A DNA stretch of 64,000 nucleotides, from positions 43,400,001 to 43,464,000 of the forward strand of contig NC_091998.1 in assembly GCF_044704955.1 (NCBI RefSeq). Direction: 5' to 3'. Below, piece after piece: positions 27,485 to 59,852 of this stretch. A program made the position numbers and the translations under genes. This DNA is from Pristiophorus japonicus. Lineage: Eukaryota. The notes under the pieces were generated by a model, which was not told where the DNA came from, made no database searches, and saw only the letters and a program-made list of their open reading frames with translations. Position 1 is the first letter of the stretch. Each line of letters begins with the position of its first letter.

Positions 27485-27571
27485 TCAAGCATTCCTTTCC
27501 CGAGGTGGTATATAGTCCAATCCGAGATGTGCAAAGATTTCCTCTTCTGTAGCAGCCGGCAAAAATTTATT
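27485..27571 (-). CDS. POLM: DNA polymerase mu, last exon 11 (NKFLPAATEEEIFAHLGLDYIPPRERNA*)
   Basis: Acceptor gaaAG|AAT at 27571, 87 nt ending in TGA at 27487-27485. Typical Pol X thumb C-terminus. Confidence 0.9.
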   Translation of the reverse strand, partial: NKFLPAATEEEIFAHLGLDYIPPRERNA

Positions 27572-28412
27572 CTTTCAAATTTGGAAGAAAATAATGTTAA
27601 CTTTTAAATTTATATGTAAAGTTATTAATCATACAATTAGCACAAGTAATATTACTTTGGTTTTAAGATGTTGTACTTGGAACATAAGAACGTAAGAACG
27701 TAAGAATTAGGAGCAGGAGTTGGCCATTCGGCACCTCGAGCCTGCTCTGCCATTCAATGAGATCATGGCTGATCTTCTAACTCAACAGTATTGAAACCTA
27801 AAAGTCAAAAGGAAGAGAGCTTTCCTCTTCTGAAGTGAATGGATTGCTATCTCTGATTTTGTACAGTTAACATAATTTCATTAGGGGCACACCACTCAGA
27901 ATTAACTGCATTAGCAATGCAGTGTGTTGGCAGATTACCGCACTACACAGCAGAGGGCAAAGCTATGGACCAATGCTTACGGAGTTCTAGCTTACTTGGA
28001 TTATTTTGTGGGCTAACTCTTTACGTACAGATAGAGTGAATTTTTTTTTTCTAATTTGGAGAATGAGTCCATAAGAACATAAGAATTAGGAGCAGGAGTA
28101 GGCCATTTGGCCCCTCGAGCATTCAATAATATCATGGCTGATCTGATCTTGGCTTCAACTCCACTTGCCCGCTCCCCATAATCCTCGACTCCCCTGTAGT
28201 CCATCTGAACTCGCCTCCAAGAGCAGAATGCCCACCTTCCAATTGCTGTGGATCACGTCACATCGTGCTGGGACGAAAGTGAGGCCGCCACAGTGAAAAC
28301 CACGATATAACATTACTTAGAATCGGACAGCACAGGAGGCCATTCAGGCCGATTAGACTTCTTTCAAAATTGTTTGGTAGATTCAGAGCCAAATTTTTGG
28401 ATTTCTTCCTAC

Positions 28413-28496
28413 CTGTTCATTATCAAACAAAGAATGGCTGTTCAAACCCATGTGCTTGAAGTGCTTGGCATATCTGCGTAGGTCTCGTTCAAAGAG
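28413..28496 (-). CDS. POLM: DNA polymerase mu, exon 10 (LFERDLRRYAKHFKHMGLNSHSLFDNEQ)
   Basis: tcctgtAG|CTC...CAG|GTAGG, 84 nt, phase 0/0. Contains the Pol mu-type NSH motif. Confidence 0.92.
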
Positions 28497-29025
28497 CTAC
28501 AGGACGCAAGGAGAAGGAAACAAGAAACAGTCATTGAAACTTAAAAGTCAAAATGGAGAAAGCTTTCCTCTTCTGAAGTGAATGGATTTCTAGCTCTGAT
28601 TTTCTGCATTTCCAGATGATGTGTTTTACCATCTATTTCCCCCCCCGCCCCCAACCAGTTATCTTCCCTTCCACACCTAAAGCCCTTAACTCTTGCTGGT
28701 GTAGGGATCCTTGGGTGTCAGTTGCTTTCCCATACGTCATTCAAATAGCCATTCTTCAATTGTACCCTAAATTGAGTACGTCAACTGCAGGGACAGAACA
28801 GCAAAGCCCACATATTCATATGGACACACCTCTGACAGGAGTCGTGCATATTATTCAGGAGTGGAAACCCCGGTTTGTTTTGCTGTTCCCTACTCCAAGG
28901 GTGCTGACGCCAACTGTAATGTCCTGTTATCTCAGCTGCAATCAGGTAACGCGTTACAAGCTGGATCCTTCCTGGTCCATCGGGCTGAGCTACTCGCGGC
29001 TAATCAGTTAAGCCCAGATAATGTG

Positions 29026-29350
29026 GGGAGCTCCCACAAACTGCAATGTGGTAATGACCAGATAATCTCTTTTTTAATATCGATTGAGAGATAAATATTG
29101 GCCAGGACACCGGGTATAACTCCCCCTGCTCTTCTTCGAAATAGTACGAGATCTTTTACGTCCACTTGAGAGCGCAGACGGGGCCTCGGTTTAATGTCTC
29201 ATCGGAAATCAGCACCTCCGACAGTGCGGCGCTCCCTCAGCACTGCACTGGGAGTGTCAGCCTAGATTTTTTTTGTACTCAAGTCCCTGGAGTGGGATTT
29301 GAACCTACAAACTTCTGACTCAAGAGGCGAAAGTACTACCCCACAGAGCC
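29026..29350 (-). mobile_element. DeuSINE (SacSINE1-like)
   Basis: Reverse complement of the head and Deu domain. Confidence 0.8.
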
Positions 29351-30685
29351 TCAGCTGAAAGAGGATTATAGGGCTGGAGGAGGTTACCAAAATATGTGAG
29401 GAGCAAGCCATGAAGGGATTTAAATATGTTAATATTTTAAAATTTGAGGCTATGGAGGACCAGGAGCCAATGTCAGACAGCAAAGACAGGGGCGATGGGC
29501 GAGCTGTACCTGGTGTGGTTAGAATATGAGCAGCAGAGTTTTGGGTGAGCTGACGTTCGTGGAGGGCAGAGGATAGGAGGCCAGCCAGAAGAACATTTGA
29601 ATAGTCAAGTCTGGCTGTGACAAAGGCACGGATGAGGGTTTCAGCATCGGATGGGCTGAGGTAGGAGCAGAGGTGGGAAATGTTATGGGGAGGTGGAACT
29701 AGGCATGATGGAGAGGATGTGAGATTGGAAGCTCATTTCAGGATTGAATAGGATGCCGTGATTGCAAACAGTCTGGCTGAACTGGAGACAGGTGTTGGGG
29801 AGAGAATGGAATTGATGGCAAGGGTTTGCGGCGAAGACTGAAGACGATGGCTTCGGTCTTCTCACTGTTTAACTGGAGGAAATCCTCATCTTCCTGCAAT
29901 ATTTCTGTTTTGCTTTTAATGCTAACCGGTCATACTAAAGAACTTGTATTTGTATAGCACCTTATCGACATCCTCAGGGCATCTTACAACCAACTTTTGA
30001 AGTACAGTCGCTGCTGTTATGTGGGTAAAATCGGCAAATTGATTTGCATACAGCAAAATCTCACAACCAGCAAATGAATGAATCACCAGGTAATTTGTTT
30101 TTTTTGGTCTTTGCAAGAGAAATGTTGGCCAGTACACCAGGAGAAACCGGCTGAGCAAGGGAAAATCCCGAGCTAAACAGCCGGCCTCTGAGCGCCATAA
30201 CAGAGGTGGGGGGCGGGGGGGGAATAAACCCTTGAAAAAACCCACCAAAAACATCCCAGATACATAGCTCACGCATAAATCGGCAAATTTTTTTTTTAAA
30301 CAATCACACTTACCCGAGATTGGCATTCCTTCCCTCACTGCAGCTCGGTCCCCCCCGCTTTCACAGGCGTCCCCGCCAGGGCTATGACCATATACAGCGT
30401 TTCGGGTTGGGCAGCAACCACAAATCGAGCCAGTGTCGCGACTCGGGGCATTGCACACCAGCTCACCTTTCCCGGGCGGTAATGCTCCACGCCCCGTCCA
30501 TACCAGCACCGAATGTCCCGGCGGAGCGCCGGAAGCTGGCCGCAAGTGCTTTCCGGCGCCATTGCCACCCTCCGGGGTGCTAAGAGGGGCGGCAGAAGAC
30601 TGAATTGCCACCCCACACTGTTTTGAATCAAGTGCCTTTGTCAGTTCTGACGAAAGGGATTGATCCAAATATTAACCGGTCTGTT

Positions 30686-31092
30686 TGTGGCGGAGGAGCG
30701 GCGAGAGATCGTGGCGGAGGAGCGGCGAGAGATCGTGGCGGAGGAGCGGCGAGAGATTGTGGCGGAGGAGCGGCGAATGAGGGTACGGGGCCCAGAAGAG
30801 CCGAGGGCCCAGGGGCAGCACGGGCCAGCCCACACTGCGATGTGTGCGCACACTAGGTCCGTGCAGCAGAGCAGGTCTCCAGTTGCCCTGGTTCAACCCT
30901 TGTCTAGCTCTGTCGAGCCCGTGTGGTGGCTGATGTGCAACAGTCGCCACACGTTAAAAAAAATCCACGCACAGGCATCTTCCACCCCCTCAATTGGAGT
31001 TCAGGATTGGAACATCGGGTCCTTCACTGAAACATCGGTGAACTCTTATGGAAGCAAGTCATCCTCGTTCGAGGGACCGCCTATGATGATGA
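30686..31092 (+). mobile_element. RTE-derived bipartite SINE with a 21-bp 5' tandem repeat
   Basis: About 4 copies of gtggcggaggagcggcgagagatc-type units, then an RTE 5'UTR-like body and the RTE 3' end with a (tga)n tail. Confidence 0.75.
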
Positions 31093-31188
31093 ACCGGTCT
31101 TTCTCAGTTGCTAACTGATCAGCAGAGTTTTGCTTTATATTTCTGTATCAGACAATAGTTGTATCGTACTATATTTAATTATACTTAC

Positions 31189-31521
31189 CTGTGAGCCTGT
31201 CCATCCCAATAAGGCATAGGCATACTGGCCAAAGGGAGCAATGACCAGGTCCACTCTCACAGCCTTCCAGTTCTTATCTCTTGCTGCAGCAGCAGATACT
31301 TGCCGAGTAGTCTCTGCATGACCAGCAAGTCCAATTCCCCCAGTCACATTCACAGCCAAAGAGTCACGATTGTTTGGTCTGTTTGGTTCTATATTATTTA
31401 CTGTCTCCTTCTTTAGTTTGAAGATAGAAAAGCATTTTGTAAAGTGATCAAATATCTCAGGCTCCTTGTTTTTCAACTTATGGTAACTGTTGTCAGTGAT
31501 GTCATCATACAATATCAGTCC
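31189..31521 (-). CDS. POLM: DNA polymerase mu, exon 9 (GLILYDD...FDHFTKCFSIFKL...WKAVRVDLVIAPFGQYAYALLGWTGSQ)
   Basis: ttttAG|GGA...CAG|GTAAGT, 333 nt, phase 0/0. Contains Loop1, the third catalytic Asp (RVD) and the GWTGS motif. Confidence 0.95.
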
Positions 31522-31744
31522 CTAAAACAATTGGAAAACAAACTTGTAACTTAACATTTACTTTTCCACAGTTCGCAAAGGTTATCAGCTTGAAAAATGT
31601 CTAGGTTGTTAAAAACGTTCATTATGCAAGGATCCTTGCTGTTATCAGAGGTCTCTGTGCTGGCCTCTTGAGCCGCCCCGATTTTAATCACTCCGCTACT
31701 GGTGGCCGTCCCTTCAGCTGCCAAAGCCCTAAAGCTCTGGAATA

Positions 31745-32296
31745 AAAACAGAGAATGCTAGAAATCTCAACGTGTCAGGCAACATCAGTGGAGAGAAAAA
31801 CAGAGCTAACTTTTCGGGTCAACGACCCTTCGTCAGAACTGCCGAATGTTCGAAAAGAGCACGTTCTTTCTTTCCCATCCCTTTTCAGTGCGAAAGAACA
31901 AAAGGGAAGGTCTGTGATAGGGTGGAAGGCAGGAGAGATTAGAGACACAAAAGGGATGATGGCCGAATTGAAATGGTAATGGCAGAAGTCAGGTAAAGGT
32001 TAATCTGGATAGGGTGTGAATGGTGTAGTAATGACCAGCTGCCATTATCGACAGAGAGAAAAAATAGAAGAAGGAAGAAAAAAAAAAAAGAGGATATGCT
32101 CTGAAATTGTTGAACTCGATGTTGAATCCAGAAGGCTGTAAAGTGCCTAAGCGAAAGAAGAGGTGCTGTTCCTCGAGCTTGCGTTGAGCTTCATTGGAAC
32201 AGTGTAGGAGTCCGAGAACGCAGATATCAGAGTGGGAGTGGAGCGGAGATTTAAAGTGACAGGCGACCGGAAGGTCAGGGTCACACTTACAGACTG
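31745..32296 (-). mobile_element. Penelope-like element fragment
   Basis: The reverse strand of 32100-32215 encodes LGLLHCSNEAQRKLEEQHLFFRLGTLQPSGFNIEFNNFR, resembling a GIY-YIG C-terminus. Related short terminal fragments lie at about 8735-8810 and 34745-34836. Confidence 0.6.
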
Positions 32297-34419
32297 AAGC
32301 TCTGGAATTCCCTCCCTCAACTTCTCCGCCTTGCTACCTCTTTTTCCTTTAAGACGCTCCTTAAAACCTACCTCTTTGATCAAGCTTTTGGTCATCTGCC
32401 CCAATATCTCCTTATGTAGCTCAGTGTCTGATAACGCTCCTGTGAAATGGCTTGGGACGTTTTACTACATTAAAGTCGCTATATAAATGCAAGTTGTTAT
32501 GTTGTTGCAGAGAACTAGATTTATCAATTAATTACAAAACCCTCGTCAACAATATTAAAAGAACACCTTTCCTATTAACTTGTTGTGCAACAATTCCTTC
32601 TCAAAATCTTTTTAAAACAATTTTTAATATAAAAATGGCTATGGACAAAGCACATGAAAAACATTAAAATGATTAGGGCAACAGATAAATGGATGTGTTC
32701 TGTGGGTATGCAGTTTCTCACCAAAAACCAAGACCTACTTCCAGTGTGGTGCGAAGATTTACAGTGCAGATCTCAGGGCCGACCCCCAGTTTGTGCTGAG
32801 TTAGCTTAATCTCACTCTGCCTCCAATGGTGGGGCAAAGGGAGGGGAGATGTTCACAAACGACAGGAGTCAGAGAACCAAAAGGTGCCGGAGGGAATGTA
32901 AAGCTGGAGGAAGTTGCAGAGATAGGATAGGGTGAGGCTATGGATGTTAATAGAAGATAGGATTTAATCTTTATGTTTTTGGAGGGGGGGGGGGCAGAAC
33001 AAGGAGAAATTGTAGGTCTAGAACTCACTCCCTAAACCGCTCCACCTCTCTACCTCTCTTTCCTACTTTAAGACACTAGTAAGGACAAGTCTGAAGATAA
33101 TGAAAGTATGGATAAGGGTTCCAGCGGCAGTGAGATTGGTGTGGTGGTCAGCAATGTTATTGAAGTGGAAATAAGCAATGTTAGTGATGTATAGAATCAT
33201 AGAATGGCTACAGCACGGAAGGCAGCTATTCGGCCCATCGAACCCGCGCCGACTCTCAGCTAGTCCCATTCCCCTGTCCTTTCCCCATAACCCTGCAATT
33301 TTTTCTCCTTCAGATACTTATCCAACTCGCTTTTGAAAAATAAAATTGAGTTTGGTTGCCAGATTTGAAGCTGAACTCGAGGTTGAATAAGGTGCCAAGG
33401 TTTCACATACTCTGGTTCAGCTTGAGCAGGGGGCTAGGAAGCAGGTGGAGACAGTGGGAAGGGAACAGAGTTTATGGAAGAGACCAAAAAATGATGGTTC
33501 CCGATGAGTATCCCAGCTTCAGTCAGTTCTTTTGTCATTTGTTGAATAACTCATTATAGGCCAGTGTAAGAGAAAGAGACAAAATAGAATCAACAATCAA
33601 GATGTAGAGAGAACGCTAACTACCCTCCCACCCATTTAGAACTGATAAAAGCACAGCATAATGTAGCCCAGCTTAATAGCATGGGCAAGAAAGGAGGAAC
33701 AGAGAGGGACAAAGTCCATGGCAAAGCTTAAAAAGATGTGCGTTCATCTAATTTTCAATCTAAAACATGCCGCCATGGGAGATGATACTTCAAGGAAAGT
33801 CAGAGGACAGTAACCCAAGACAGAATTGTACAAGTTTCCCCCCCCCCCACCATCGTAACCTTGAACCGGGTCAGTCTCTAGCTTTTCTCCCATCTTCCCT
33901 CGTGCCTTCTCTGAGCTCATCTTGTCCCAGAGACCCACCTCATGCTCTGTTGACTCCCATTCCCATTAAACTGACCATCCCAACTTCCTTTTCTAGCCTG
34001 CATTCGAGCTGATATTGTAAATGGTTCCCAATCAGGTTTCCGCCTCTGCCACAGCACTGAAACGGTTCTAATGGAAGTCACAAAGGACATCCTATGTGAC
34101 GGTGACCATGTATACTCAGGATACTCCTCATCCTTCTCGAGCTCTGCAGCCTGTGCCATGGTTAACCACACCATCCTCTTCCAACGCCACTCCTTTGTTG
34201 TCCATCAGAGTGGGACTAACTCTGCTTCCTTGTATTCTTACAATCAAAAATGTTCTAGATAGTGATGTTAAATGTTTTGGGACTATTAGCAGCAAAGTTC
34301 TGAAACCGACCCCCCATAAATGAATTATCATATCAGTTTGATCTACATCCAAGTTGAAGAAGTTTAAGGGTCAAAATTATCTCTTGGACATTGCCAAAGT
34401 TCATAAAATGTCTGAGTCA

Positions 34420-34719
<300 letters not shown>

Positions 34720-35777
34720 CTATTTTCTATGTTTCTAAAAATGGTCTGAGGAAGGGTCATTGACCTGAAACATTGAGTCGGTTTCTCGCTCCACAGATGC
34801 TGCCTGACCTGCTGAGTACTTCCAGCATTTTCTGTTTTAACCAAAATTGTTGGTATTTTCGAATGCATTTCTTTAGGATTGGGTCAATGCAGTGGAGTGC
34901 TTGGTTCCCACCCCGAAGGCTGTTGGTTGAAGAGCTGGTGACAAAGAGCACTCCCCGTGATGATTCCAAACCTCATTTTCCGCCCGGCTCGGTTTTACTT
35001 TAGTTTCCAATTTATGCCAACCCAGATAAATTAGAAGTATCTGAAACAATGCAAGGAAGTGTTTTGTATAGTTTATGACTCTTCCCCAGTTCTTAACTGG
35101 TCTGTCAATCCTTCTCTACACCACAATACTCATTGTACCAGCTGATCATTGCAGACAGGCCATTGCTGCACAATCACGGGGTGGAGTATGGCACAGAAGT
35201 AGATACTTGTGAACTTGTGAATGTTGCACTTATCAAGTTGGACAATTGTAATGAATTTAAACAATATTTCTCCTGAATGGCCTACTAGGTAAATGTACTG
35301 CCCTATGTGGTTTTAAGCCCTATAGATCAGAGAGAACATTGAGAGGTTTTCCCTTTGGTCTATACAGAGCTCGCTAATCTCAACTAGTATGGTAGTAGGA
35401 AAGCATTAATTAGCTTCAGTACGAGGACTAGGAAAGGAGAGGAGGGGGAGGGGGGGAAATCAGTTAGTGTTCCTGTTTGTGAACATTATTCAAGGACCTC
35501 TCCTGCAGAACGCACCTGTGGATATCAACTAAGGCCAGCATTAGACCCAGCATGGTCAAAGTCATGAGAACATAAGAAATAGAAGAAATAGGAGCAGGAG
35601 TCGGCTATTTGGCCTCTCGAGCCTGCTCCGCCATTCAATAAGATCATGGCTGATCTGATCTTGGCCTCAGCTCCACTTCCCTGCCCGCGCCCATAACCCT
35701 CGACTCCCTCGAGTCCTGTTAGCACTCAAGCCTAAGGCTTGTATGTAAATAATAACTGCTTCGGTGAAGTACTCCCA

Positions 35778-36174
35778 AAGCAAGCACTCTACTTGGAACT
35801 CCTACACAGCAAGCGAGGCCCAGGTGGGTAGAGGAAACGTTTCAAGGACACCCTCAAAACCTCCTTGATAAAGTGCAACATCCCCAACGACACCTGGGAG
35901 TCCCTGGCCAAAGACCGCCCTAAGTGGAGGAAGAGCATCCGGGAGGGTGCTGAGCACCTTGAGTCTCGTCGCCGAGAGCATGCAGAAATCAAGTGCAGGC
36001 AGCGGAAGGAGTGTGCGGCAAACCAGATTCCCACCCACCCTTTCCTTCAACGACTGTCTGTCCCACCTGCGACAGAGACTGTAATTCCCGAATTGGACTA
36101 GTCAGTCACCCGAGAACTCATTTTTGGAGTGGAAGCAAGTCTTCCTCGATTTCGAGGGACTGCCTATGATGATG
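35778..36174 (+). mobile_element. RTE LINE 3' fragment
   Basis: Encodes IKCNIPNDTWESLAKDRPKWRKSIREG and ends in gagggactgcctatgatgatg. Confidence 0.85.
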
Positions 36175-36785
36175 CCTTGGCTCCACAGAACCCTGCCCTA
36201 GCAAGTGGTCAATGAGGAAATGCAAGCAGGGGAGAAAATTACCCCTCAAAAAACACACAGGCTGTACTGAAAATATTTACAAGACACTTCAAATAAATTT
36301 ATATTTTTCTCCAATACAGCTCCATTACTGTTGAGCATTTGGATCTAATAGAAAGTAAGATGTCCATCTGACATGTTTTATACAACATGCATTTTTCAAG
36401 AACTGGGAATTACATTCGATGGACAATCGTGGACACTTTAAAAAATAACCTTTACCTGCACAGGATTACATGAGCACTGCAACCAAAACAAAAGCATTCT
36501 TTCTTGGGGTGTTTATTTTGACTCTTGTGCAGAAGGAACTTTCTTCAGTTTGCTTGTATTTTTACAAGGTTATGGCTACTTTGTAAGCTGCCATATTACA
36601 ATGTCTGACTCTCAATTAAAAGACAAGTTCAAACCCAGTCTCAGCTGAGACATGTAGACAAACAAGAACTCCGTCCAGCATTGCTCACGTCAGCTGATGC
36701 ACAGCACTGATGCAGTCTACGAGGACATGAGCAGTTTCAACCATTTTGCTCCTGATGGGAGTAAATAGGTCATTATAAAAAGAAA

Positions 36786-37746
36786 ATGACTTGCATTTCT
36801 ATAGCTCCTTTCACGACCACCGGACTTTCCAAAGCACTTTACAGCTAAATAAGGTACTTTTTGAAGTGGGGGCATTGTTGTGATGTAGGAAAGGCGGCAG
36901 CCAATTTGTGCACAGCAAGCTCCCACAAACAGCACTATGATAATGACCAGATAATTAGTTTTTAGTGATGTTGATTGGGGGATAAATTTTGGCGTGTACC
37001 TTGCAGGGGCACACCGCCACACTGCCCATGGCCGCCGTTCCTTTTATGGCCCCGACCTGCCGCTGATGGTCTCTCGCAGGTCGGGGCTGCCACGTGGGCA
37101 GTACAGCAGGAGCGGCGAGGTCGGGGTAGAAGGAGCGGCGAGAGATTGTAGAGCGACGTGATCGGGGTCCAGGAGAGGCGTGAGTTCGGGGCCAGAAGAG
37201 GCGAGGGCCCAGGGGCAGCACGGGCCAGCCCACACTGCGATATGTGCGTGCTCGGTCCATGCAGCAGAGCTGGTCTCGTCGTCCTGGTTAATCCTCGCCA
37301 CTGGACCAAGACCTAGCTCTGCCAAGCTCGTGTGCAACGGCCGCCACACGTTAAAAAAATCCACGCACAGGCATCTTCCACCCTTCAGCATGTAGTTCGG
37401 GACCTGGAATATTAAGTCCTTCATTGAAACACCTGTGAACTCATCCTTTTTTGGCATGGAAGCAAGTCATCCTGGTTTCGAGGGACTGCTTATGATGATG
37501 AAATATCGACCAGGACACCGGGAATAACTCTCCTGCTCTTCTTCGAAATAGTGCTGCGGAATCTTTAAGAGCAGACGGGCGTCGGTTTAACATTTCATCC
37601 GAAAGACGGCACCTCTTGACAGTGCAGCACTCCCTCAGCACTGCACTGGAGCGTCAGCCGAGATTTCTGTGCTCAAGTCCCTGGAGTGGGACTTGAACCC
37701 GCAACCTTCTGACTCAGAGGCGAGTGTGCTGCCCACTGAGCCACGG
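36786..37746 (-). mobile_element. DeuSINE interrupted at ~36995-37500 by a plus-strand RTE-derived bipartite SINE
   Basis: The SINE 3' half (36786-36990) and 5' half (37501-37746) flank a copy of the 30686-31092 element that ends in tatgatgatg. Confidence 0.75.
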
Positions 37747-37951
37747 CCGATAACAATAACAGGTCCTCATTTACCTAGTCCTTTCTACTCTTTACAATCT
37801 TAGTTGAAGGGCGTTGGCCTCCTTTAGGTTTCACAATAATAAAGGATAGCCATGGTTCCCTTTCCTTTTCTCGGGTAGTTTCAGGCTTTTACAAATGTTA
37901 GCAGAAGTTAACGGAACCACATTGTGTTAGGAGAAGCTAAAGTGCGCTAAC

Positions 37952-38084
37952 CTTCGAAAGCCACCAGCTAGTGTTATAATTGCAGTCGGTAGAAATCTGT
38001 GTACAGCTCCTTCCACAATTTGTCCGATCAAATCTGCCTCTGCCCTTGTAACTGGTACAATGAGGTCTTCATAATACAGCAGGC
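37952..38084 (-). CDS. POLM: DNA polymerase mu, exon 7 (GLLYYEDLIVPVTRAEADLIGQIVEGAVHRFLPTAIITLAGGFRR)
   Basis: ttttacAG|GC...AG|GTTAG, 133 nt, phase 1/2. Contains the GGFRR motif. Confidence 0.93.
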
Positions 38085-39902: not shown

Positions 39903-40576
39903 AGTTGGCGAGAGGTGGGAGCAGCGTCGGAGCGGCCTATAAAGGCCCAGCGGGAGCTCGAGGGTCAGCGGCAGTTGGCGAGAGGTGGGAGCAGCGTCGG
40001 AGCGGCCTATAAAGGCCCAGCGGGAGCTCGAGGGTCAGCGGCAGTTGGCGAGAGGTGGGAGCAGCGTCGGAGCGGCCTATAAAGGCCCAGCGGGAGCTCG
40101 AGGGTCAGCGGCAGTTGGCGAGAGGTGGGAGCAGCGTCGGAACGGCCTATAAAGGCCCAGCGGGAGCTCGAGGGTCAGCGGCAGTTGGCGAGAGGTGGGA
40201 GCAGCGTCGGAGCGGCCTATAAAGGCGCAGCGGGAGCTCGAGGGTCAGCGGCAGTTGGCGAGAGGTGGGAGCAGCGTCGGAACGGCCTATAAAGGCCCAG
40301 CGGGAGCTCGAGGGTCAGCGGCAGTTGGCGAGAGGTGGGAGCAGCGTCGGAGCGGCCTATAAAGGCCCAGCGGGAGCTCGAGGGTCAGCGGCAGTTGGCG
40401 AGAGGTGGGAGCAGCGTCGGAGCGGCCTATAAAGGCCCAGCGGGAGCTCGAGGGTCAGCGGCAGTTGGCGAGAGGTGGGAGCAGCGTCGGAGCGGCCTAT
40501 AAAGGCCCAGCGGGAGCTCGAGAGTCAGCGGCAGTTGGCGAGAGGTGGGAGCAGTGTCGGAGCGGCCTATAAAGGC
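39903..40576 (+). repeat. 70-bp tandem array (9 full units plus 44 bp) forming the CR1 5' end
   Basis: Unit agttggcgagaggtgggagcagcgtcggagcggcctataaaggcccagcgggagctcgagggtcagcggc starts at 39903, 39973 ... 40533, with only about 5 substitutions across the array. Confidence 0.97.
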
Positions 40577-47804: not shown

Positions 47805-47936
<132 letters not shown>

Positions 47937-48411: not shown

Positions 48412-48781
48412 GTCAGGCTGCAGTGACTTTGGCCTGCACTTGCACCTGTAGCTGTAGCTGGCACCTCTGTAACTCATATACAGTACTACAACCACACTGC
48501 TATTCCAGAACTCCGCTGCAGTCTTTCTTGCCTTTAACTCTCTGGCAAAATAATTTGCAATCCCAATTTTTTTTTTTTAAAAAAGAGACTGCTGTAAACA
48601 CACAACATGCTGATCAGGATCTGAATGAGAAAAAAATATTACTGTTCTGGCTGGAACCCTTCGCGATAACTCTGAATTCTGGGGAAGGGTCCCATCTGAA
48701 ATGGTAACTTCTCTTGCTCTTTCAGATATTGATTAGCATTTCTGTTTCCATTTCAGATTTCCACTTTTTTTTTCCATCTAT

Positions 48782-48808
<27 letters not shown>
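48782..48808. repeat. (AC)n microsatellite
   Basis: About 13 AC units. Confidence 0.95.
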
Positions 48809-48813
<5 letters not shown>

Positions 48814-49048
48814 ACTAAAGTTGGTACAACTGTTGAGATTACATCCTGATGAAGGTGGGAAATGGTCTGTCACCATCATTTTGCAATTGCCATTAGCCAA
48901 TCACAGTTCCCACTGTGGTCAGGTTTAGCAGATTTCCTCAGTGGCCATTTTCTGACATGTCCCTCACTAAAGTGTTGAAATCTACCCTGTGAACTTGTCA
49001 GTTCATTTCACACCGTGTAGCAAAACATCTCCCAACACCAAGGCCTAC

Positions 49049-49120
49049 CTTTAGAGTTTGATATCTCGCATTCTGGATTACACTCTCAACTTCTCTGCAG
49101 AGTCCATCTTCAAGGATTTC
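49049..49120 (-). CDS. POLM: DNA polymerase mu, exon 5 (EILEDGLCREVESVIQNARYQTLK)
   Basis: tgctgcAG|GAA...AAG|GTAGG, 72 nt, phase 0/0. Confidence 0.93.
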
Positions 49121-49306
49121 CTGCAGCAAAGATTGAGGAGACTCATGTGTTTCATTTCCTGCAGTATTAATTGCATTACTGTCCAAAAACATCCACTGAG
49201 TTGTAAATTGTTAGAACAGCAGAGACCAAACTGGATCCTTTCTCATCTGATTTTTTGCCTTTGCACTGTCTAACTTTGCTGCATCAAGGCTCCAGTGGCA
49301 GCATTA

Positions 49307-52000
49307 TAGAAACATAGAAAATAGGTGCAGGAGTAGGCCATTCGGCCTTCGAGCCTGCACCACCATTCAACATGATCATGGCTGATCATGCAACTTGGAT
49401 ATAAAAGGGGTCAGAGGGTCTAGTAAGGAGGGGGAACTGAGGGAAATCTTTATTAATCGGGAAATTGTGTTGGGGAAATTGATGGGATTGAAGGCCGATA
49501 AATCCCCAGGGCCTGATGGACTGCATCCTAGAGTACTTAAGGAGGTGGCCTTGGAAATAGCGGATGCATTGACAGTCATTTTCCAACATTCCATTGACTC
49601 TGGATCAGTTCCTATGGAGTGGAGGGTAGCCAATGTAACCCCACTTTTTAAAAAAGGAGGGAGAGAGAAAACAGGGAATTATAGACCGGTCAGCCTGACC
49701 TCAGTAGTGGGTAAAATGATGGAATCAATTATTAAGGATGTCATAGCAGTGCATCTGGAAAATGGTGACATGATAGGTCCAAGTCAGCATGGATTTGTGA
49801 AAGGGAAATCATGCTTGACAAATCTTCTGGAATTTTTTGAGGATGTTTCCAGTAAAGTGGACAAAGGAGAACCAGTTGATGTGGTATATTTGGACTTTCA
49901 GAAGGCTTTCGACAAGGTCCCACACAAGAGATTAATGTGCAAAGTTAAAGCACATGGGATTGGGGGTAGTGTGCTGACGTGGATTGAGAACTGGTTGTCA
50001 GACAGGAAGCAAAGAGTAGGAGTAAATGGGTACTTTTCAGAATGGCAGGCAGTGACTAGTGGGGTACCGCAAGGTTCTGTGCTGGGGCCCCAGCTGTTTA
50101 CATTGTACATTAATGATTTAGACGAGGGGATTAAATGCAGTATCTCCAAATTTGCGGATGATACTAAGTTGGGTGGCAGTGTGAGCTGCGAGGAGGATGC
50201 TATGAGGCTGCAGAGTGACTTGGATAGGTTAGGTGAGTGGGCAAATGCATGGCAGATGAAGTATAATGTGGATAAATGTGAGGTTATCCACTTTGGTGGT
50301 AAAAACAGAGAGACAGACTATTATCTGAATGGTGACAGATTAGGAAAAGGGAAGGTGCAACGAGACCTGGGTGTCATGGTACATCAGTCATTGAAGGTTG
50401 GCATGCAGGTACAGCAGGCGGTTAAGAAAGCAAATGGCATGTTGGCCTTCATAGCGAGGGGATTTGAGTACAGGGGCAGGGAGGTGTTGCTACAGTTGTA
50501 CAGGGCCTTGGTGAGGCCACACCTGGAGTATTGTGTACAGTTTTGGTCTCCTAACTTGAGGAAGGACATTCTTGCTATTGAGGGAGTGCAGCGAAGGTTC
50601 ACCAGACTGATTCCCGGGATGGCGGGACTGACCTATCAAGAAAGATTGGATCAACTGGGCTTGTATTCACTGGAGTTCAGAAGAATGAGAGGGGACCTCA
50701 TAGAAACGTTTAAAATTCTGACGGGTTTAGACAGGTTAGATGCAGGAAGAATGTTCCCAATGTTGGGGAAGTCCAGAACCAGGGGTCACAGTCTAAGGAT
50801 AAGGGGTAAGCCATTTAGGACCGAGATGAGGAGAAACTTCTTCACCCAGAGAGTGGTGAACCTGTGGAATTCTCTGCCACAGAAAGTAGTTGAGGCCAAT
50901 TCACTAAATATATTCAAAAGGGAGTTAGATGAAGTCCTTACTACTCGGGGGATCAAGGGTTATGGCAAGAAAGCAGGAAGGGGGTACTGAAGTTTCATGT
51001 TCAGCCATGAACTCATTGAATGGCGGTGCAGGCTAGAAGGGCTGAATGGCCTGCTCCTGCACCTATTTTCTATGTTTCTATGTTTCAGTACCCCATTCCT
51101 GATTTCTCTCCATATCCCTTGATCCTTTAGCCGTTAGGGCCACATCTAACTCCCTTTTGAATATATCTAACGAACTGGCCTCAACAACTTTCTGTGGTAG
51201 AGAATTCCACAGGTTCACAATTCTCTGAGTGAAGAAGTTTCTCCTCATCTCGGTCCTAAATGGCTTACCCCTTATCCTTAGACTATGACCCCTGGTTCTG
51301 GACTTCCCCAACATCGAGAATATTCTTCCTGCATCTAACCTGTCCAATCCCGTCAGAATTTTATATGTTTCTATGAGATCCCCTCTCCTTCTAAATTCCA
51401 GTTAATATAAGCCTAGTCGATCCAGTCTTTCTTCAAATGTCAGTCCTGCCATCCCGGGAATCAGTCTGGTGAACCTTGGCTGCACTCCCTCAATAGCAAG
51501 AATGTCCTTCCTCAGATTAGAAGACAAAAACTGTACACAATATTCAAGGTGTGGCCTCACCAAGGCCTATACCATTGCAGTAAGACATCCCTGCTCCTAT
51601 ACTCAAATCCTCTCGCTATGAAGGCCAACATGCCATTTGCCTTCTTCGCCGCCTGCTGTACCTGCATGCCAACTTTCAATGACTGATGTACTATGACACG
51701 CAGGTCTCATTGCACCTCTCCTTTTCCTAATCTGTCACCATTCAGATAGCATTCTGCCTCCCTGTTTTTGCCACCAAAGTGGATAACCTCACATTTAGCG
51801 ACATTATACTGCATCTGCCTTGCATTTGGCCACTCACCTAACCTGTCCAAGTCACCCTGCAGCTTCTTAGCATCTTCCTCACAGCTCACACTGCCACCCA
51901 GCTTAGTGTCAACTGCAAACTTGGATATATTACATGCAATTCCTTCGTCCAAATCATTAATGTATATTGTAAATAGCTGGGGACCCAGCACCGAACCTTG
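49307..52000 (-). mobile_element. Minus-strand 5'-truncated CR1 (pieces 51086-52000 and 49307-49396), split by a younger CR1
   Basis: Joining catgcaactt|cagtacccc restores the CR1 3'UTR. RT remnant [10 protein letters not shown]...FAVDTK. Confidence 0.88.
49397..51085 (+). mobile_element. Young 5'-truncated CR1 with an uninterrupted 531-codon RT-containing frame
   Basis: ORF 49395-50990 has no stops and an intact FADD motif, followed by a (ttctatgt)n tail. Confidence 0.95.
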
Positions 52001-52094
52001 ATGATATAAATGCAGCACCACGTAATAAACAGCTGCTCTCCTGGTTACCCAAAGAAAGCTTCAAGACTACAGAAACAATGCACCATGTCATTAC

Positions 52095-52265
52095 CTTAAT
52101 CACCTTTCTGGAATGGTCCCCAAGACTGGGAATCCCTTGAAGGACTTCCATTCTGGTCACATTATATGGCAAAGACTTTAGAATAGAAGATGCTCTGGTG
52201 AATGCCAGGTACCGTCCCTCACTCTCACATAACTCTGCATTTTCAGCCAGTATCTTCAATGCATC
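52095..52265 (-). CDS. POLM: DNA polymerase mu, exon 4 (DALKILAENAELCESEGRYLAFTRASSILKSLP...LGDHSRKVIK)
   Basis: gcctAG|GAT...AAG|GTAAT, 171 nt, phase 0/0. Encodes the 8-kDa domain. Confidence 0.95.
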
Positions 52266-52753
52266 CTAGGCAGAATCAAGACAAAGGACCACATCTAAAT
52301 CCATTTGTTATAGTGTACACATTTCAACATAGCCAGTTTCCATTAACTCGCTCAGGACTTCAAATGCATCCCAGGATTTTAAAAAGAATTACGACTATTC
52401 ATATTTTACATTACATACATTTTGAGCCAGGAATTTTCTTCTTTCTTCACCCCTTCCAAAGTAGCCTCACACATGAACCCAGCGAGTGTCAACAGCGTGA
52501 GTCGTCATAGTCAAGCCCTAACCATGTTCTCAAATGACTTCGATACACATGCATTTTCTAACAGCGTCGTCAGGTAGTGAACATGAGCAGCAACCTCAGT
52601 TTATATTCCCTCTCCCTCAGCCAGAGGCACGAGGGCCATCAGTCTGGGCATGACAAAGGGTCCCAAGTAACCCTGCATCTTTCATTATAGTTACTGCAAT
52701 TTATTCTAGAGACTTGGGAACAGGGATGGGGTGGGGTGTCGACTGATTATTAC

Positions 52754-52849
52754 CGTAAGTAATCTGTTTTTATTGTTCAGCGTGGTCCTTCTTTGACAGG
52801 CGTACGGTGAAATAGGAACCCCAATAACAGCAGCAGCAACTCTCGTCAC
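52754..52849 (-). CDS. POLM: DNA polymerase mu, exon 3 (VTRVAAAVIGVPISPYACQRRTTLNNKNRLLT)
   Basis: tttttAG|GTG...ACG|GTAAT, 96 nt, phase 0/0. Contains the YACQR motif. Confidence 0.92.
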
Positions 52850-53129
52850 CTAAAAATCAAACACAATTGGTAAGTATTATAATTGAATCCAGCCACACAC
52901 ACCTTATTCCCCCCCCCCTCCGACAAATGAAAATCAGACCAACCATTAACAAAGGGTGTAAGAGCCATTAAGTGGGGTCTCTCTGATATGGCAGATTGGA
53001 ACACTCTGTTGCAAACTCAGTGATCCTATTCTTAAGCAAGGCACATCCACAATACTTCAGGGCATTGTTGATGACTGACCAGCCTGGATCAAAATAGAAC
53101 CAGGAAAGGCAGACCGGTCACTGAGGAAC

Positions 53130-53522
53130 ACCCTGGAATTCCTCAGATGCACCAACGTTAGCGTCCTCGACCAGGCCAACATCCCCAGCATTGAAGCACC
53201 GACCACACTCGATCAGCTCCGCTAGGCAGGCTACATTGTTTGCATGCCTGACACAAGACTCCCAAAGCAAGTGCTCTACTCAGAACTCCTTCACAGCAAA
53301 CGAGCCAAAGGTGGGCAGAGGACACGTTTCAAGGACACCCTCAAAGCCTCCCTGATAAAGTGCAACATCCCCACTGACACCTGGGAGTCCCTGGCCAAAG
53401 ACCGCCCTAAGTGGAAGAAGTGCATCCGGGAGGGCGCTGAGCACCTCGCGTCTCATCGCCGAGATCATGCAGAAACCAAGCACAGTCTGCGGAAAGAACG
53501 TGCAGCAAACCAATCCCACTCG
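53130..53522 (+). mobile_element. RTE LINE 3' fragment, tail-to-tail with the long minus-strand RTE
   Basis: Encodes MPDTRLPKQVLYSEL...DRPKWKKCIREG. Confidence 0.85.
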
Positions 53523-53542
53523 ACTCCAGAGAACTGCAAGCC

Positions 53543-56500
53543 CATCATCATCATCATAGGCAATCCCTCGAAATCGAGGGAGACTTGCTTCCACACTAAA
53601 AATGAGTCCTTAGGTGGCTGAACAGTCCAATACAAGAACCACAGTCCCTGTCACAGGTGGGACAGATGGTCATTGAGGGAAAGGGTGGGTGGGACTGGTT
53701 TGCTGTACATTCTTTCCGCAGACTGTGCTTGGTTTCTGCATGCTCTCGGCGATGAGACTCGAGGTGCTCAGTGCCCTCCCGGATGCACTTCTTCCACTTA
53801 GGGCGGTCTTTGGCCAGGTACTCCCAGGTGTCAGTGGGGATGTCGCACTTTATCAGGGAGGCTTTGAAGGAGTCCTTGAAACGTTTCCTCTGCCTACCTT
53901 TGGCTCGTTTGCTGTGAGGGAGTTCTGAGCAGAGCGCCAGCTTTGGGAGTCTTGTGTCAGGCAGGCAAACTATGTGGCCTGCCCAGCGGAGCTGATAGAG
54001 TGTGATCAGTGCTTCAATGCTGGGGATGTTGGCCTGGTCGAGGATGGTAACATTGGTGCATCTGTCCTCCCAGGGGATTTGCAGGATCTTGCGGAGACAT
54101 CGTTGGTGGTATTTCTCCAGCAATTTGAGATGTCTACTGTATATGGTCCATGTCTCTGAGCCATAAAGGAGGGCGGGTATCACTATAGCCCTGTAGACCA
54201 TGAGCTTGGTGGCAGATTTGAGGGCTTGGTCTTTGAACGCTCTTTTCCTTAGGTGGCCGAAGGCTGCACTGGCGCACTGGAGGCGGTGCTGAATCTCGTC
54301 GTCAATGTCTGCCCTTGTTGATAAGAGACTCCCGAGGTATGGGAAATGGTCCTCGTTGTCCAGGGCCGCGCCGTGGATCTTGATGAATGGGTTGGCGGGG
54401 GCAGTGTCATGCAACAGGGACAGGTTGGTGGAGGACCATGCTTTCATACGCCTCAATGAAGATGTTGATTATGTCTCGGAGTCTCTGAATGTGCGCAGAC
54501 GCAGGCGTCGTCCGCGTACTGTACCTCGCCGACAGAGGATGGGACAGTCTTGGATCTGGCCTGGAGACGTCGCAGGTTGAACAGGTTCCCACTGGTTCTG
54601 TAGTTTAGTTCCATTCCAGCGTGGTGCTTGTTGATTGTGAGGTGGATCATGGCGGCGAGGAAGATTGAGAAGAGGTTTGGCGCGATGACGCAGCCCTGTT
54701 TGAACCCGGTCCAGACGTAGATTGGGTCTGTAATGGATCCGTTGGTAAGGATCACGGCTTGCGTGTCGTCGTGGAGCAGGCGGAGGATGGTGACAAACTT
54801 TTGGGGACAGCCGAAATGGAGGAGGACGCTCCATTGACCCTCGTGGTTGACAGTGTCAAAGGCCTTTGTAAGGTCAAAGAAGGCCAAGTACAAGGGTTGG
54901 TGTTGCTCCCTGCATTTTTCTTGTAGCTGTCGCGCTGTAAAAATCATGTCTGTTTTACCCTGGAGGGGACGAAACCCACACTGCGACTCCGGGAGGAACT
55001 CCTCAGCCACAGGGAAAAGACGGTTGAGGAAGATTCTAGCGATGATTTTCCCAGTGGCTGATAACAGGGAGATTCCTCTATAGTTGCCGCAGTCGGACTT
55101 GTCCTCTTTTTTTTAAAGATGGTCACGATCACTGTATCTCTGAGATCTCCCGCCATGCTCTCCTCCCTCCAGATGAGAGAGATGAGGTCATGCATTCATG
55201 CCAACAGTGCCTCTCCGCCATACTTCAGTGCCTTAGCAGGGATTCCATCCACTCCCGTAGCCTTGTTGTTCTTAAGCTGTCTTATGGCTTCTCTACCTCA
55301 TGCAGGGCTGGGGTTTTACTGAGATGGTGGCGGATAGCATGCTGTGGGTTGGATTCGAGGACACTCGAGTCAAAGGCACAGTCTCGATTGAGGAGATCCA
55401 CCCAGCGGGCCCTGACTGCCTCGGTGTCCTTGATGAGTGTCTCCCCGTTCTTGGCCAGCAGTGGGGTGGGGCCTTGGGTGTTTGGACCGTCGGTGGCCTT
55501 GACTGCGGTGAAGAATCCTCACACATCATGGCTGTCGGCCAACTGCTGTATCTCCTGTGCTTTCTCCATCCACCACTTGTTCTTTAGGTCCCGAGTTTTT
55601 TGTTGGACCTCGGCCTTAAGCCATCTGTAATGCTGCCTTGCTGCTCCCGAGTTGGGTTGTTGTTTTAAGCTCCAAAATGCCCTGCGCTTGTGATCTATTA
55701 ACTCTTGGATCTCCTGGTCATTCTCATCAAACCAGTCCTGGTGTTTCCTGGTTGAGTGACCGAGCAGCTCTTCACAGGCACTGGTTATGGAGGTCTGGTG
55801 GGCAGACTAAGCGCTGTGGACATTCTGCATCTCAGGGTCATCAAGGCATGCCAGGTTAGCTGTGAGGTGCTGACTGTATAGGGCTCTCTTAGCTGGGTCT
55901 TTGAGTGCCCCGGCATTGACTTTTTTGCAGCACTGCTTCTGCTGCCATTGCCACTTTGGGGCTATGTTGATGTTAATGATGGAATAGATTAGGCGGTAGT
56001 CCGTCCAGCAGTCATCAGTTCCTGTCATGGCACGGGTGATGTGCCCATCCTTGCAATCCCTGGCTTGGACAATGACATAGTCGAGCAGGTGCCAGTGTTT
56101 GGAGCGAGGGTGTTGCCACAATGCCTTATACTGGACCTTCTGGCAGAACAAGGTGTTGGTGATGAAAAGGTCGTGTTCTAGACATTTTGTCAGGAGCAGG
56201 GTACCGCTGGGTTTGGTTTACCCTAATCACTCTCTGCCGATCACGCCTCCCCAGGGGGCTGTGTCCTTGCTGACCCTGGCATTGAAGTCACCGAGGAGGA
56301 TCAGTTTGTCGTCTGCAGGGACGCGGGACAGGGATTTTTCAAGGCTGAAGTAAAAACCCTCTTTGGTCTCATCGAGGGTTGGGGCGTACATACTGAGCAT
56401 TGATTCCGGGATAGGGTGAGTCGGAGAATCATAAGAACATAAGAAATAGGAGCAGAAGTAGGCCATACGGCCCCTCGAGCCTGCTCCGCCATTCAATAAG

Positions 56501-58728
56501 ATCATGGCTGATCTGATCATGGACTCGGCTCCACTTCTGTGCCCACTCCCCATAACCCCTTATCGTTTAAGAAACTGTTTCTGTCTTAAATTTATTCAAT
56601 GTCCCAGCTTCCACAGCTCTCTGAGGCAGCGAATTCCACAAATTTACAACCCTCATGAGGAGAAATGTCTTCTCTCTCAGTTTTAAATGGGCGGCCCCTT
56701 ATTCTAAGATCATGCTCTCTAGTTCTAGTCTCCCCCATCAGTGGAAACATCCACTTTGTCAAGCCCCCTCATAATCTTATACGTTTCGATAAGATCACCT
56801 CTCATTCTTCTGAATTCCAATCAGTAGAGGCCCAACCAACTCAACCTTTCCTCATAAGTCAACCCCCTCATCCCTGGAATCAACCTAGTGAACTTTCTCC
56901 GAACTGCCTCTAAAGCAAGTATATCTTTCCTTAAATATGGAAACCAAAACTGCATGCAGTATTCCAGGTGTGGCCTCACCAATACCCTGTATAGCTTTTA
57001 TACTCTATCCCCTTTGCAACAAAGACCAAGATTCCATTGGCCTTCCTGATCACTTGCTGAACCTGCATACTATCCTTTTGTGTTTCATGCACAAGTATCC
57101 CCAGGTCCCGCTCTACTGCAGCACTTTGCAATCTTTCTCCATTTAAATAATAACTTGCTCTTTGATTTTTTTTCTGCCAAAGTGCATGACCTCACACTTT
57201 CCAACATTATACTCCATCTGCCAAATTTTTGCCCACTCACTTAGCCTGTCTATGTCCTTTTGCAGATTTTGTGTCCTCCTCACACATTGCTCTTCCTCCC
57301 ATCTTTGTATCATCAGCAAACTTGGCTATGTTACACTCAGTCCCTTCTTCCAAGTCGTTAATATAGTCGCTTCTTCCAAGTCGAATCATGAGACGTTCGT
57401 TAATCCTGCAGGGGGAAGTCTTTGAGGCGGTTGACCAGCTCGTTTTTGATAGCGAAACCTACTTCGTGGAGGCGGTGTTCTTCCTTTGGTTTCCATTTCC
57501 AAAAGAAGGTGTAACCTCCACCTTGTTCCTTGAGCTGGCCTTCCCCTGCCCACCGGGTCTCACTTAGGGCAGCGATGTTGATATCAAAGCGTCTAAGTTT
57601 CCGGGCAACTATGGCGGTGCGGCATTCCAGCCTGCCGCTGTTGGGAGTTGTCCATGAGGGTCCTGACATTCCAGGTCCCGAACTTCATGTTTATGGAGTG
57701 GAAGTTGCCTGTGCGCGAGTTCTTTTAACGTGGAGTGGCAGTTGCACACCAGCTACCACACTGGCTTAGCTGAGCAAGGTCTTGGTCTAGTGGCAAGGGG
57801 GTCCAAGACGACTGGAGACCAGTCACTGCTGTATGAGCCTAGTTGCCTACGAGATGTTGGCCATAAGCTCGGCGCTGAGTAGCGCCCTTCGGTGAGATGG
57901 TAGGTGGTCCGAGGTTTGACCGGGGGCAGACATTGGGAAGGTCAGTGGACTATTTTTTGGGTGATGTTCAGAGTGGAAGGAGGTCAGGGTGGTCACAGCC
58001 ATTGTGCTCTCCACGTGCTGGAGGAGAAGAGGCCAGGTCGTCAGTGGAGAAGGAGAGGCCTAGTCGCCGGTGGAGGGGAGGAAGCCCAATCACTGTTGAA
58101 GGAGGAGGGGCTTAGCCACCGCTGGGGTAGAGGAGGCCCGATCGCCATTGAAGGAGCAGCTGAGTCGGCTATGTCCAGTGGGGAGCGCAAGGTAGGCCCA
58201 AAACTGTGGTCGGAGGCTCATCGGGCGGCGTCGGGGATCGGGTGGAGCAGCTGAGTTGGCCGCGTCGTCGGGAGCGTGGGGGAGAAGAGGTCCAGTTGCT
58301 GCAGGAGGGGAAGAGGCTCGGACGTCGAAGAAGGGAAGAGGCCCAGTCGCCGCTGGAGAAGAGGTCCGGTCGCTGGAGGGGAAGTGACTCGGATGCTGCG
58401 GAAGGAAAGAGGCTCGGATGCTGCAGGAGGGAACAGGCTCGGTCGCCGCTGATTAGAGGGTTGTCCGGTCGTCGCCGATGGATGGAAGCTCGGAGGGAAG
58501 GCTCGCGCCTGAGGTAGGCCCAAATTTTGGGGATTTGTGTTTTAGAGTTTTATGGTTTTAGGGTTAGAAATGCACCCTCTATTAGGGCCTATTAAGACCA
58601 GGGGAAGCTTAAACATTGGAAGGGGGGTGATTGAGTGTGAAAAGGTGTCGTATGGCAACTGATGGCAAGGATAAAGTTGTTTGGCAGGGGAGCTCCCAGG
58701 GAGCTGCCACCCCGACAGCCATCTTGCT
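53543..58728 (-). mobile_element. Near full-length RTE (BovB-like) LINE, decayed, in POLM intron 2
   Basis: The ORF starts MKFGTWNVRTLMD (ATG at 57688). It includes APE (ALSETR, LLGDFNARV), RT (ESQCGFR, FDLTKAFD, QGCV, YADD) and a C-terminal CxxC...HxxxH finger, with a (gat)n tail. The GC-rich 5'UTR probably begins at caagatggc near 58727; this boundary is inferred. Confidence 0.85.
56429..57366 (-). mobile_element. CR1 3' fragment inserted in the RTE endonuclease region
   Basis: (ttcttatg) tail at 56429-56448 and KFADDTK at about 57320. Same subfamily as the 9220-24233 CR1. Confidence 0.85.
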
Positions 58729-59671
58729 TATCCCAATGCACTAGTGGACATCAGGTGGTTTTGAGTGGAGATGGAGTGGGAAGATTACCAGTGGTATTAA
58801 TTGGCAAACTGTGAACTTATTTGATTCAACTCCAGCAGTACCGCTGCTCACATTCAGCGTCTCCAAGATTTGGTTCTGCCAATCTGCACCTAAGCTTTCT
58901 GGATTTAGATAAGTGGAGCATGTCCCTTATAAAGGAGCGGGTGCGTTCCATTGCAAGGCAATCAGAAACTACCTATTTGTATTTCTCAGTCATTTGATTT
59001 GGAGACTCTAAATATTGCAACGAGTTTCCTCATTGTAACACATACCTGCCCAAAACTAAAAGGAGTGAAATTAGAATTTCAGAAAATTCCATGTAGTATA
59101 CCATCATTGATGGAAATTTACTTCACGTCAACGATTTCCTTGGAATGTGTGTTTAGCATTTCAGAAGCTTGTATATTTTTCACTATTCAGAGCCCTATGG
59201 ACTTTCCTTATTCTGACCAGTTGGACGTATCCTGCTTGAATACATCTGACTCTTCCTTCAGCCACACAATTTTTTCTCCACTTTCCTCCTTTCCTAAAAA
59301 GATGCTAGCTGTGGATTCACAGAGAGGGTCAGCAGACTATTTTAACACGGAAGGGGGAAATCACAGCCTGACACAATCTGGCTGTTCATTCACACGCACT
59401 TCCAGCAGGACACACTGAAAAGCAATCAGGAGCAGGAACCCTAGGTGATTTTGCCCAGGGACAGGAAGCGATTGCAGCACCCAACTCCTGTCCCAGCCAT
59501 TAGTCAACGTATACCACAGACCAGGAATCGAACCTAGTGCGTTCCTGGTCTATTTGACAACGAACCACACCTCACATGGTGCATTAATGAATCGCCAGAG
59601 GAATTCTAATATATTTTTTCAAAAGTGCACTCACATATCAGTGTTCTCTAACAAGACTTGCATCAAAATAC

Positions 59672-59852
59672 CTGAAGCCGATGGCGAGTTTCCAGTTCCA
59701 AGGGCCTGCCTGCTCCCATACACTCCGTGAACCACGCAATATCTACCAAGGCCGCTGTGAATCCAGTTCTGCAAACTCCGTTCTGTTTTTCCAGCAAATC
59801 CAACACCTCATCACCAGTGTTATTCTCAGACACAACATGGGTAACGGATTCA
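59672..59852 (-). CDS. POLM: DNA polymerase mu, exon 2, BRCT domain (ESVTHVVSENNTGDEVLDLL...LVDIAWFTECMGAGRPLELETRHRLQ)
   Basis: ctttgcAG|T...CAG|GTATT, 181 nt, phase 2/0. BRCT motifs THVV and W..ECM.AG.P. Confidence 0.93.

Follow-up and report, generated by a model that had tools for sequence, protein, structure and literature searches.

A TdT-type lysine at the SD1 site of DNA polymerase mu in a sawshark and other elasmobranchs

Introduction

In DNA polymerase mu (Pol mu, gene POLM), Arg387 of the human enzyme grips the primer and limits both untemplated addition and back-translocation or slippage; this residue is proposed to set the compromise between accuracy and efficiency when Pol mu joins ends, and is usually regarded as a fixed Pol mu trait. 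Its replacement by lysine (R387K), the residue that TdT (gene DNTT) carries at this site, is reported second-hand to raise terminal transferase activity up to 100-fold and to make slippage freer. In TdT itself Q402A behaves much like the wild type, Q402E is strongly reduced, K403R is strongly impaired, and D473A turns the enzyme template-directed; templated joining by Pol mu draws on Asn457 of the NSH motif and on the arginines of helix N. A fungal relative, Aspergillus AfPolX1 (PMC12828229), is a Pol X with dual templated and untemplated activity in which Gly replaces the active-site His. This background is taken from PMC2724280, PMC4081086, PMC12828229, PMC10322711, PMC3526283, PMC3592450, PMC1636348, PMC12785651, PMC12362244, PMC5192425 and PMC6795676. 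Here we describe POLM of the sawshark Pristiophorus japonicus, which lies on the minus strand of a 64-kb stretch of assembly GCF_044704955.1 (NC_091998.1: 43,400,001-43,464,000; hereafter the window, whose positions are used for all gene coordinates), and which carries lysine at the site of Arg387.

The same residue is found in every elasmobranch POLM that we surveyed, so that an entire vertebrate clade, and separately the coelacanth, carries what in the laboratory is the "brake-off" residue. This constitutes a natural experiment with a built-in control, the chimaera, whose Pol mu has Arg. Outgroup sequences also appear to reorder the story, with a Pol mu-like ancestor and TdT as the derived paralogue. 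Strong terminal transferase activity in the shark enzyme would be relevant to the diversity of shark antibody junctions and would provide a new scaffold for making DNA enzymatically; its absence would show that Lys alone is no predictor of activity.

The SD1 lysine in sharks and rays

One row per named species was surveyed, comprising 15 elasmobranch POLM, 93 other non-mammalian POLM (chiefly teleosts, frogs and birds being absent) and 127 DNTT sequences; extra isoforms, unnamed rows and a macaque fragment were left out. Lys393 of the sawshark protein, within the SD1 motif DHFTKCF, aligns with the Arg of human Pol mu DAFERSF and with the Lys of mouse TdT DHFQKCF, as had been claimed in an earlier note made from the letters of this DNA. 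Lysine occupies the site in 15/15 elasmobranch POLM and 126/126 DNTT, and in a single one of the 93 other POLM, that of the coelacanth; Arg is present in 89 of those 93 and another residue in four, so the lysine is not a general property of non-mammalian Pol mu. The gene is thus a familiar one, but at a residue whose function has been studied it carries a genuine variant shared by a whole clade. An assembly error at Lys393 was ruled out, given its presence in all 15 elasmobranch species and the zero alternative letters across the SD1 exon in contigs from a pair of public runs that belong to a single study.

The published Pol mu SD1 motif is ERS, according to PMC2724280, and the sawshark TKC does not match it. 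Since Cys is found in 90 of the 93 other non-mammalian POLM and a residue other than Arg in four, we take ERS as a mammalian marker and not as a criterion of membership. The coelacanth sequence (P0028, partial) combines SD1 DHFEKCF with NSH and a 26-residue Loop1, and at the Arg387 position Ser was seen in axolotl and newt POLM and Thr in anglerfish and frog (P0043, P0073, P0112, P0272), the frog SD1 being strongly diverged. No account of the shark Pol mu SD1 was found in the literature searched, which included few subscription journals and not the supplementary alignments of PMC4081086 and PMC2724280, where it may be shown; the supplement of PMC12828229 contained no shark terms.

The residues around the lysine are distinctive as well. 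The position of human Glu386 (sawshark 392) is Thr or Ala in shark POLM, giving SD1 TKC or AKC, and the wedge position 388 is Phe in 15/15 elasmobranch POLM against 2/93 others, while the position of human F389 is Leu or Tyr in six of the 15, with Leu in four of the five batoids. With the Leu of LY and the Asp of SD1 as its bounds, Loop1 has 21 residues in ten sharks, 20 in five batoids and 23 in 127/127 DNTT. Its core in elasmobranch POLM is the NSY of fish Pol mu, as in the sawshark, or a decayed version of it (in carpet sharks and rays); the DNTT core, defined as S/A-T-F/L/M, reads STF in 104 rows. Four ray POLM (P0013, P0018, P0019, P0022) have Phe where TdT has Leu398 and Leu where it has Phe405, a swap also described for AfPolX1.

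The earlier note had described the protein as a mosaic of Pol mu and TdT signatures. Among the former, SD2 NSH holds well: [NST]SH-like motifs occur in 14/14 elasmobranch and 92/93 other POLM and in 0/127 DNTT, and DN(H) occurs in 125/127 DNTT, in 0/14 elasmobranch POLM and never in POLM. The "TH" of the ITHP motif is similarly partitioned (14/15 elasmobranch POLM, 92/92 other POLM, 0/126 DNTT); GVGVKTA proved a weak marker (35/92 other POLM, 9/126 DNTT). Among the proposed TdT-like segments, three are enriched in sharks and TdT, namely the SD1 Lys, FERDLRRYA (14/14 elasmobranch POLM, 1/93 other POLM, 66/126 DNTT) and LY.D at the start of Loop1 (14/15, 3/93 and 116/127, respectively). The remaining ones occur widely among the other non-mammalian POLM: YACQRR in 79/90, EEEIFAHLGL in 45/92 and the SD1 Cys in 90/93. 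At diagnostic POLM/DNTT columns, which were defined on bony vertebrates only, DNTT-type states were counted at 5-8 of 17 in elasmobranch POLM, at 0-4 of 14-20 in the other jawed-vertebrate POLM tested, at 5 in hagfish, 2 in lamprey and 11-14 in elasmobranch DNTT; the 17 sawshark columns divide into 10 POLM-type, 6 DNTT-type and 1 other. Judged from these alignments the mosaic is real but mild, because five of the six DNTT-type residues are R/K or D/E swaps dispersed along the gene, and no segment leaps towards shark DNTT.

Gene structure and comparison with known enzymes

In-script splicing recovered ten exons at 59852-27485 on the minus strand, every one bounded by AG/GT, and a single exon path reproduces residues 73-531 plus the stop of P0002, the 531-residue UniRef entry named POLM of P. 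japonicus. The exon count proposed earlier is thereby borne out, and all of the motifs quoted with it were found on the minus strand within 27485..59852. Residues 1-71 of P0002 lie outside the 64-kb window. The features are as follows, all on the minus strand.

59672..59852, minus: POLM exon, second half of BRCT, about residues 72-132, first exon in the window (splicing, BRCT match)
52754..52849, minus: POLM exon, residues 133-164, with the YACQRR motif at 52804-52787 (motif, splicing)
52095..52265, minus: POLM exon, residues 165-221, 8-kDa domain (splicing, Pfam)
49049..49120, minus: POLM exon, residues 222-245 (splicing)
47816..47936, minus: POLM exon, fingers helix-hairpin-helix, with K256 and K260 at human K249 and R253 (alignment, splicing)
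37952..38084, minus: POLM exon, residues 286-330, start of the palm (splicing)
34423..34525, minus: POLM exon with HDVD, comprising His336 and catalytic Asp337 and Asp339 (motif, splicing)
31189..31521, minus: POLM exon, residues 365-475, with Loop1, SD1, the 48-residue Loop2, RVD (Asp455) and GWTGS (splicing)
31450..31512, minus: Loop1, 21 residues (368-388), Pol mu-type NSY core, Phe388 at the mouse TdT Leu398 position (alignment)
31429..31449, minus: SD1 DHFTKCF, residues 389-395 (motif, alignment)
31435..31437, minus: Lys393 codon AAA, equivalent to human Pol mu Arg387 and mouse TdT Lys403 (alignment, splicing)
28413..28496, minus: POLM exon, residues 476-503, helix N and SD2 NSH (28442-28434) (motif, alignment, splicing)
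27485..27571, minus: final coding exon of POLM, residues 504-531 with the TGA stop (splicing)

The exon with Loop1 and SD1 (31521-31189) is 100% identical to P0002, and in contigs of the same two runs, for which the records give neither library type nor tissue, 31189 is joined to 28496 over the 2692-base intron, a form that may also exist as DNA. Pfam domains for BRCT, helix-hairpin-helix, fingers, palm and thumb are present, and H336, D337, D339 and D455 are invariant across 52 aligned rows; the sawshark gene is an ordinary POLM with its catalytic residues intact.

Vertebrate Pol mu (human structures 9CQ3 and 9N81) is the best sequence and fold match for the protein, which shares with it the BRCT, 8-kDa, fingers, palm and thumb domains, the His and three Asp of the active site, SD2 NSH and the helix-N arginines (R479, R482, R483 and K486 align with human R442, R445, R446 and R449), and with fish POLM the NSY of Loop1. 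It departs from vertebrate Pol mu in its SD1 (TKC, not ERS or ERC), its 21-residue Loop1 with Phe388 and its 48-residue Loop2, and from the human enzyme in having Lys at the R253 position, where TdT also has Lys, and at the R449 position. With DNTT, including shark TdT, it shares SD1 D-H-F-x-K-C-F, LY.D, FERDLRRYA and roughly 50% identity, but it has neither DNH, nor a 23-residue Loop1, nor STF, and it falls outside the DNTT clade. Engineered human R387K has the identical residue at the identical site; the shark Lys differs in being natural, clade-wide and set in another Loop1/SD1 context, and its effect is a prediction by analogy. The likeness to AfPolX1 lies in the Phe at the Loop1 wedge; the sawshark pair is Phe/Phe, unlike the Phe/Leu pair of AfPolX1, which was not probed by mutation in the portion of PMC12828229 available.

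Two local peculiarities of the protein were also recorded. Residue 331 (34524-34522, minus) is Glu in the sawshark at a position adjoining the active site (GFRRGK) where Gly is near-invariant, and Gly is found there in two other sharks examined. Loop2 (31410-31270, minus) has 47-48 residues in five elasmobranch POLM; most other POLM and DNTT have 11-39, and tuna 58.

Placement among Pol mu and TdT

Trees of 86, 75 and 54 rows were built, the latter two without the columns from Loop1 to Loop2. DNTT forms one clade with support of 100/100, and the sawshark protein lies outside it, clustering with shark, ray and chimaera POLM (100/99 with chimaera POLM); it is thus a Pol mu and not a TdT, as had been proposed. 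A clade of elasmobranch POLM and DNTT that leaves out chimaera POLM was rejected (p-AU 0.003), and a misannotated TdT was ruled out by both tree and motifs. Sharks, rays and chimaera each have a DNTT of their own, and that of sharks is intact and 49-50% identical to P0002. Against core chains the sawshark protein scored slightly higher with mouse TdT (396 bits) than with human Pol mu (385 bits), and a Foldseek search returned two Pol mu chains at the top and TdT chains next, a ranking that does not separate Pol mu from TdT. AlphaFold confidence in Loop1 was uninformative as a sign of TdT-like rigidity (pLDDT about 57 at 381-390 in the sawshark, 57-61 in a shark TdT control).

Two database entries deserve mention. 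The 858-residue catshark DNTT model P0158 contains retroelement RNase H domains and is likely a gene-model artefact, and lungfish P0030, annotated as "DNA nucleotidylexotransferase-like", clusters with POLM and has ERC and NSH, the lungfish having a separate DNTT (P0243).

Predicted activity and alternative explanations

The reading that we favour, with slightly more confidence than doubt, is that sawshark Pol mu is likely a template-guided polymerase whose SD1 Lys likely dates from the shark-ray ancestor and is convergent with TdT, with a predicted rise in untemplated addition and slippage but without becoming a second TdT. Human and mouse mutants suggest how this could work: Arg387 would hold the primer and restrain back-translocation, and Lys would loosen this control. 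The change of Glu386 to Thr or Ala in sharks would, by the TdT mutants, act in the permissive direction; given that Q402A resembles the wild type and that Q402E and K403R are impaired, TKC and AKC point towards activity. The NSH thumb loop, the basic residues of helix N and the short NSY Loop1 should still admit a template strand, and the residues that serve templated joining are kept in the sawshark (N494, R479, R482, R483, K486). By analogy with the characterized enzymes, the sawshark protein most likely joins ends under template guidance as a Pol mu does, but with its brake relaxed, and most N addition at antigen-receptor junctions would stay with the separate shark TdT. Several points weigh against this prediction: the predicted activity is extrapolated from a single substitution in the human enzyme, two- and three-residue deletions in Loop1 lower TdT activity, and the terminal transferase activity of human Pol mu is abolished by F389L, a Leu that four of five batoids carry.

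A conservative single-base Arg/Lys swap could instead have drifted near-neutrally in a loosely constrained Loop1/SD1, leaving untemplated addition no better than in other Pol mu, an explanation that we regard as tentative and rather unlikely. Across nine matched elasmobranch lineages Loop1 identity is 59% in POLM vs 75% in DNTT and SD1 identity 78% vs 94%, with the core at 80% vs 79% (teleost POLM, for comparison: 73%, 97% and 74%), which, with the decay of the NSY core, the variable F389 position and the conservative nature of most TdT-type residues, fits weak constraint. However, the Lys is fixed in all elasmobranchs surveyed though its neighbours vary, Arg is kept in 89 of the 93 other POLM, and the same swap strongly affects mammalian enzymes in both directions.

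Alternatively, Lys393, the loss of Glu392 in sharks and the Phe388 wedge might together have produced a strong terminal transferase, so that sharks would have two N-adding enzymes, with Pol mu also writing the diverse light-chain junctions. The shark SD1 lies wholly in the TdT-permissive direction, the Phe wedge is nearly private to elasmobranchs, and the wedge pair of four rays is that of a terminal transferase, AfPolX1. According to one review, the light-chain junctions of sharks are diversified most often by N addition, and mouse Pol mu acts in light-chain joining, where N additions are infrequent. We nevertheless consider this improbable, and the following points also tell against the strong terminal transferase activity and the part in N addition suggested in the earlier note: SD2 is NSH, and TdT turns template-directed when its SD2 Asp is lost (D473A); Loop1 is short and variable; and sharks have an intact DNTT, which the same review credits with the light-chain N additions and another places in the epigonal organ, where TdT is expressed. 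Bamboo shark T cell receptor alpha joints, moreover, retain a microhomology signature.

Origin of the lysine

According to the earlier note, the lysine and a TdT-like activity might be a retained pre-duplication state, which would mean that sharks kept the ancestral enzyme while chimaera and bony vertebrates moved to Arg. The outgroups speak otherwise. They came from a cluster-representative search (the best 150 of 5032, of which 75 were aligned and 30 identified by name), and their SD1 reads ERCF in hagfish, lamprey, amphioxus, sea urchin, starfish and Trichoplax and ARCF in a crinoid; Arg is thus present in six of six deuterostome outgroups (two cyclostomes, amphioxus and three echinoderms), as it is in chimaera and lungfish POLM, and Lys is present in most protostomes. 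Under a three-state model of the SD1 column alone, P(Lys) was <=0.024 on every tree for the ancestor shared by lamprey and TdT; the highest-likelihood tree gave 0.008 for the POLM/DNTT duplication and 0.059 for the ancestor of chondrichthyan POLM. Retention would also require parallel reversals in chimaera, in ray-finned fish and in lungfish together with tetrapods. The claim of a retained state is accordingly not upheld, and three separate gains of Lys are the most likely history among vertebrates: one in TdT, one in elasmobranch POLM and one, likely an independent change, in coelacanth POLM. Because the outgroups have a Pol mu-type Loop1 core and lack the SD2 Asp, and because the long stem belongs to DNTT (0.40 changes per column on the best tree, against 0.05 for POLM), the pre-duplication ancestor looks Pol mu-like; with TdT as the derived paralogue, the ancestral-enzyme account is probably backwards.

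The same unequal stems render the rooted order of POLM and DNTT uncertain, and a number of results count against a derived lysine. Two free trees place chondrichthyan POLM beside DNTT with 54-56% bootstrap, POLM monophyly receives 31% and 13% bootstrap in free trees, and the root among POLM and DNTT is weakly supported. At the node uniting shark POLM and DNTT in the two weakly supported free trees, P(Lys) rises to 0.26-0.27 and to 0.74, the latter on the 54-row tree, which has no lungfish. Parsimony over 200 bootstrap trees required fewer changes with Arg in 57, tied in 133 and required fewer with Lys in 10 for 75 rows; for 54 rows the counts were 68, 59 and 73. On the other side, trees constrained to POLM monophyly had slightly the higher likelihood, exceeding the free trees by 2.7, 0.4 and 2.2 log units (p-AU 0.62, 0.51 and 0.70). 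A fully species-shaped tree, tested against the free one, was rejected (p-AU 0.001 and 0.017). The per-site ancestral values rest on that species-shaped tree and are therefore rough: they suggest an old origin for D371 (0.93), H390 (1.0), C394 (1.0), Y484 (1.0) and K260 (0.81), and a convergent one for T155, E271 and K393. These older TdT-like residues, the coelacanth Lys and the higher core-chain score with mouse TdT are what an ancestral enzyme retained by sharks would also predict; set against the outgroups, we hold that account to be very doubtful.

Gene conversion, in which DNTT segments would have been copied into elasmobranch POLM, could explain the surplus of DNTT-type residues, but is largely refuted at the protein level and extremely improbable, as these are scattered single sites in several exons, Loop1 is 24% identical to elasmobranch DNTT and 43% to chimaera POLM, and the sequence right after Lys393 is POLM-type (FSIFKL).

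Introns and surroundings of the gene

No neighbouring gene was detected when the 27 kb downstream of POLM were scanned for motifs and Pfam domains (27 of 64 open reading frames scanned); only broken retroelement remains were found there. These comprise, at 14203-11312 (minus), reverse transcriptase, RNase H and integrase, each in a reading frame of its own, reverse transcriptase at 16360-17250, integrase at 21403-22086 and a weak endonuclease match at 10257-10769. Within the introns, contig depth reaches tens of thousands in both runs at about 29077-29298 and at 30742-31074, which points to high-copy repeats, and a tandem array at 39903-40576 consists of 9.6 copies of a 70-base unit with 98% matches.

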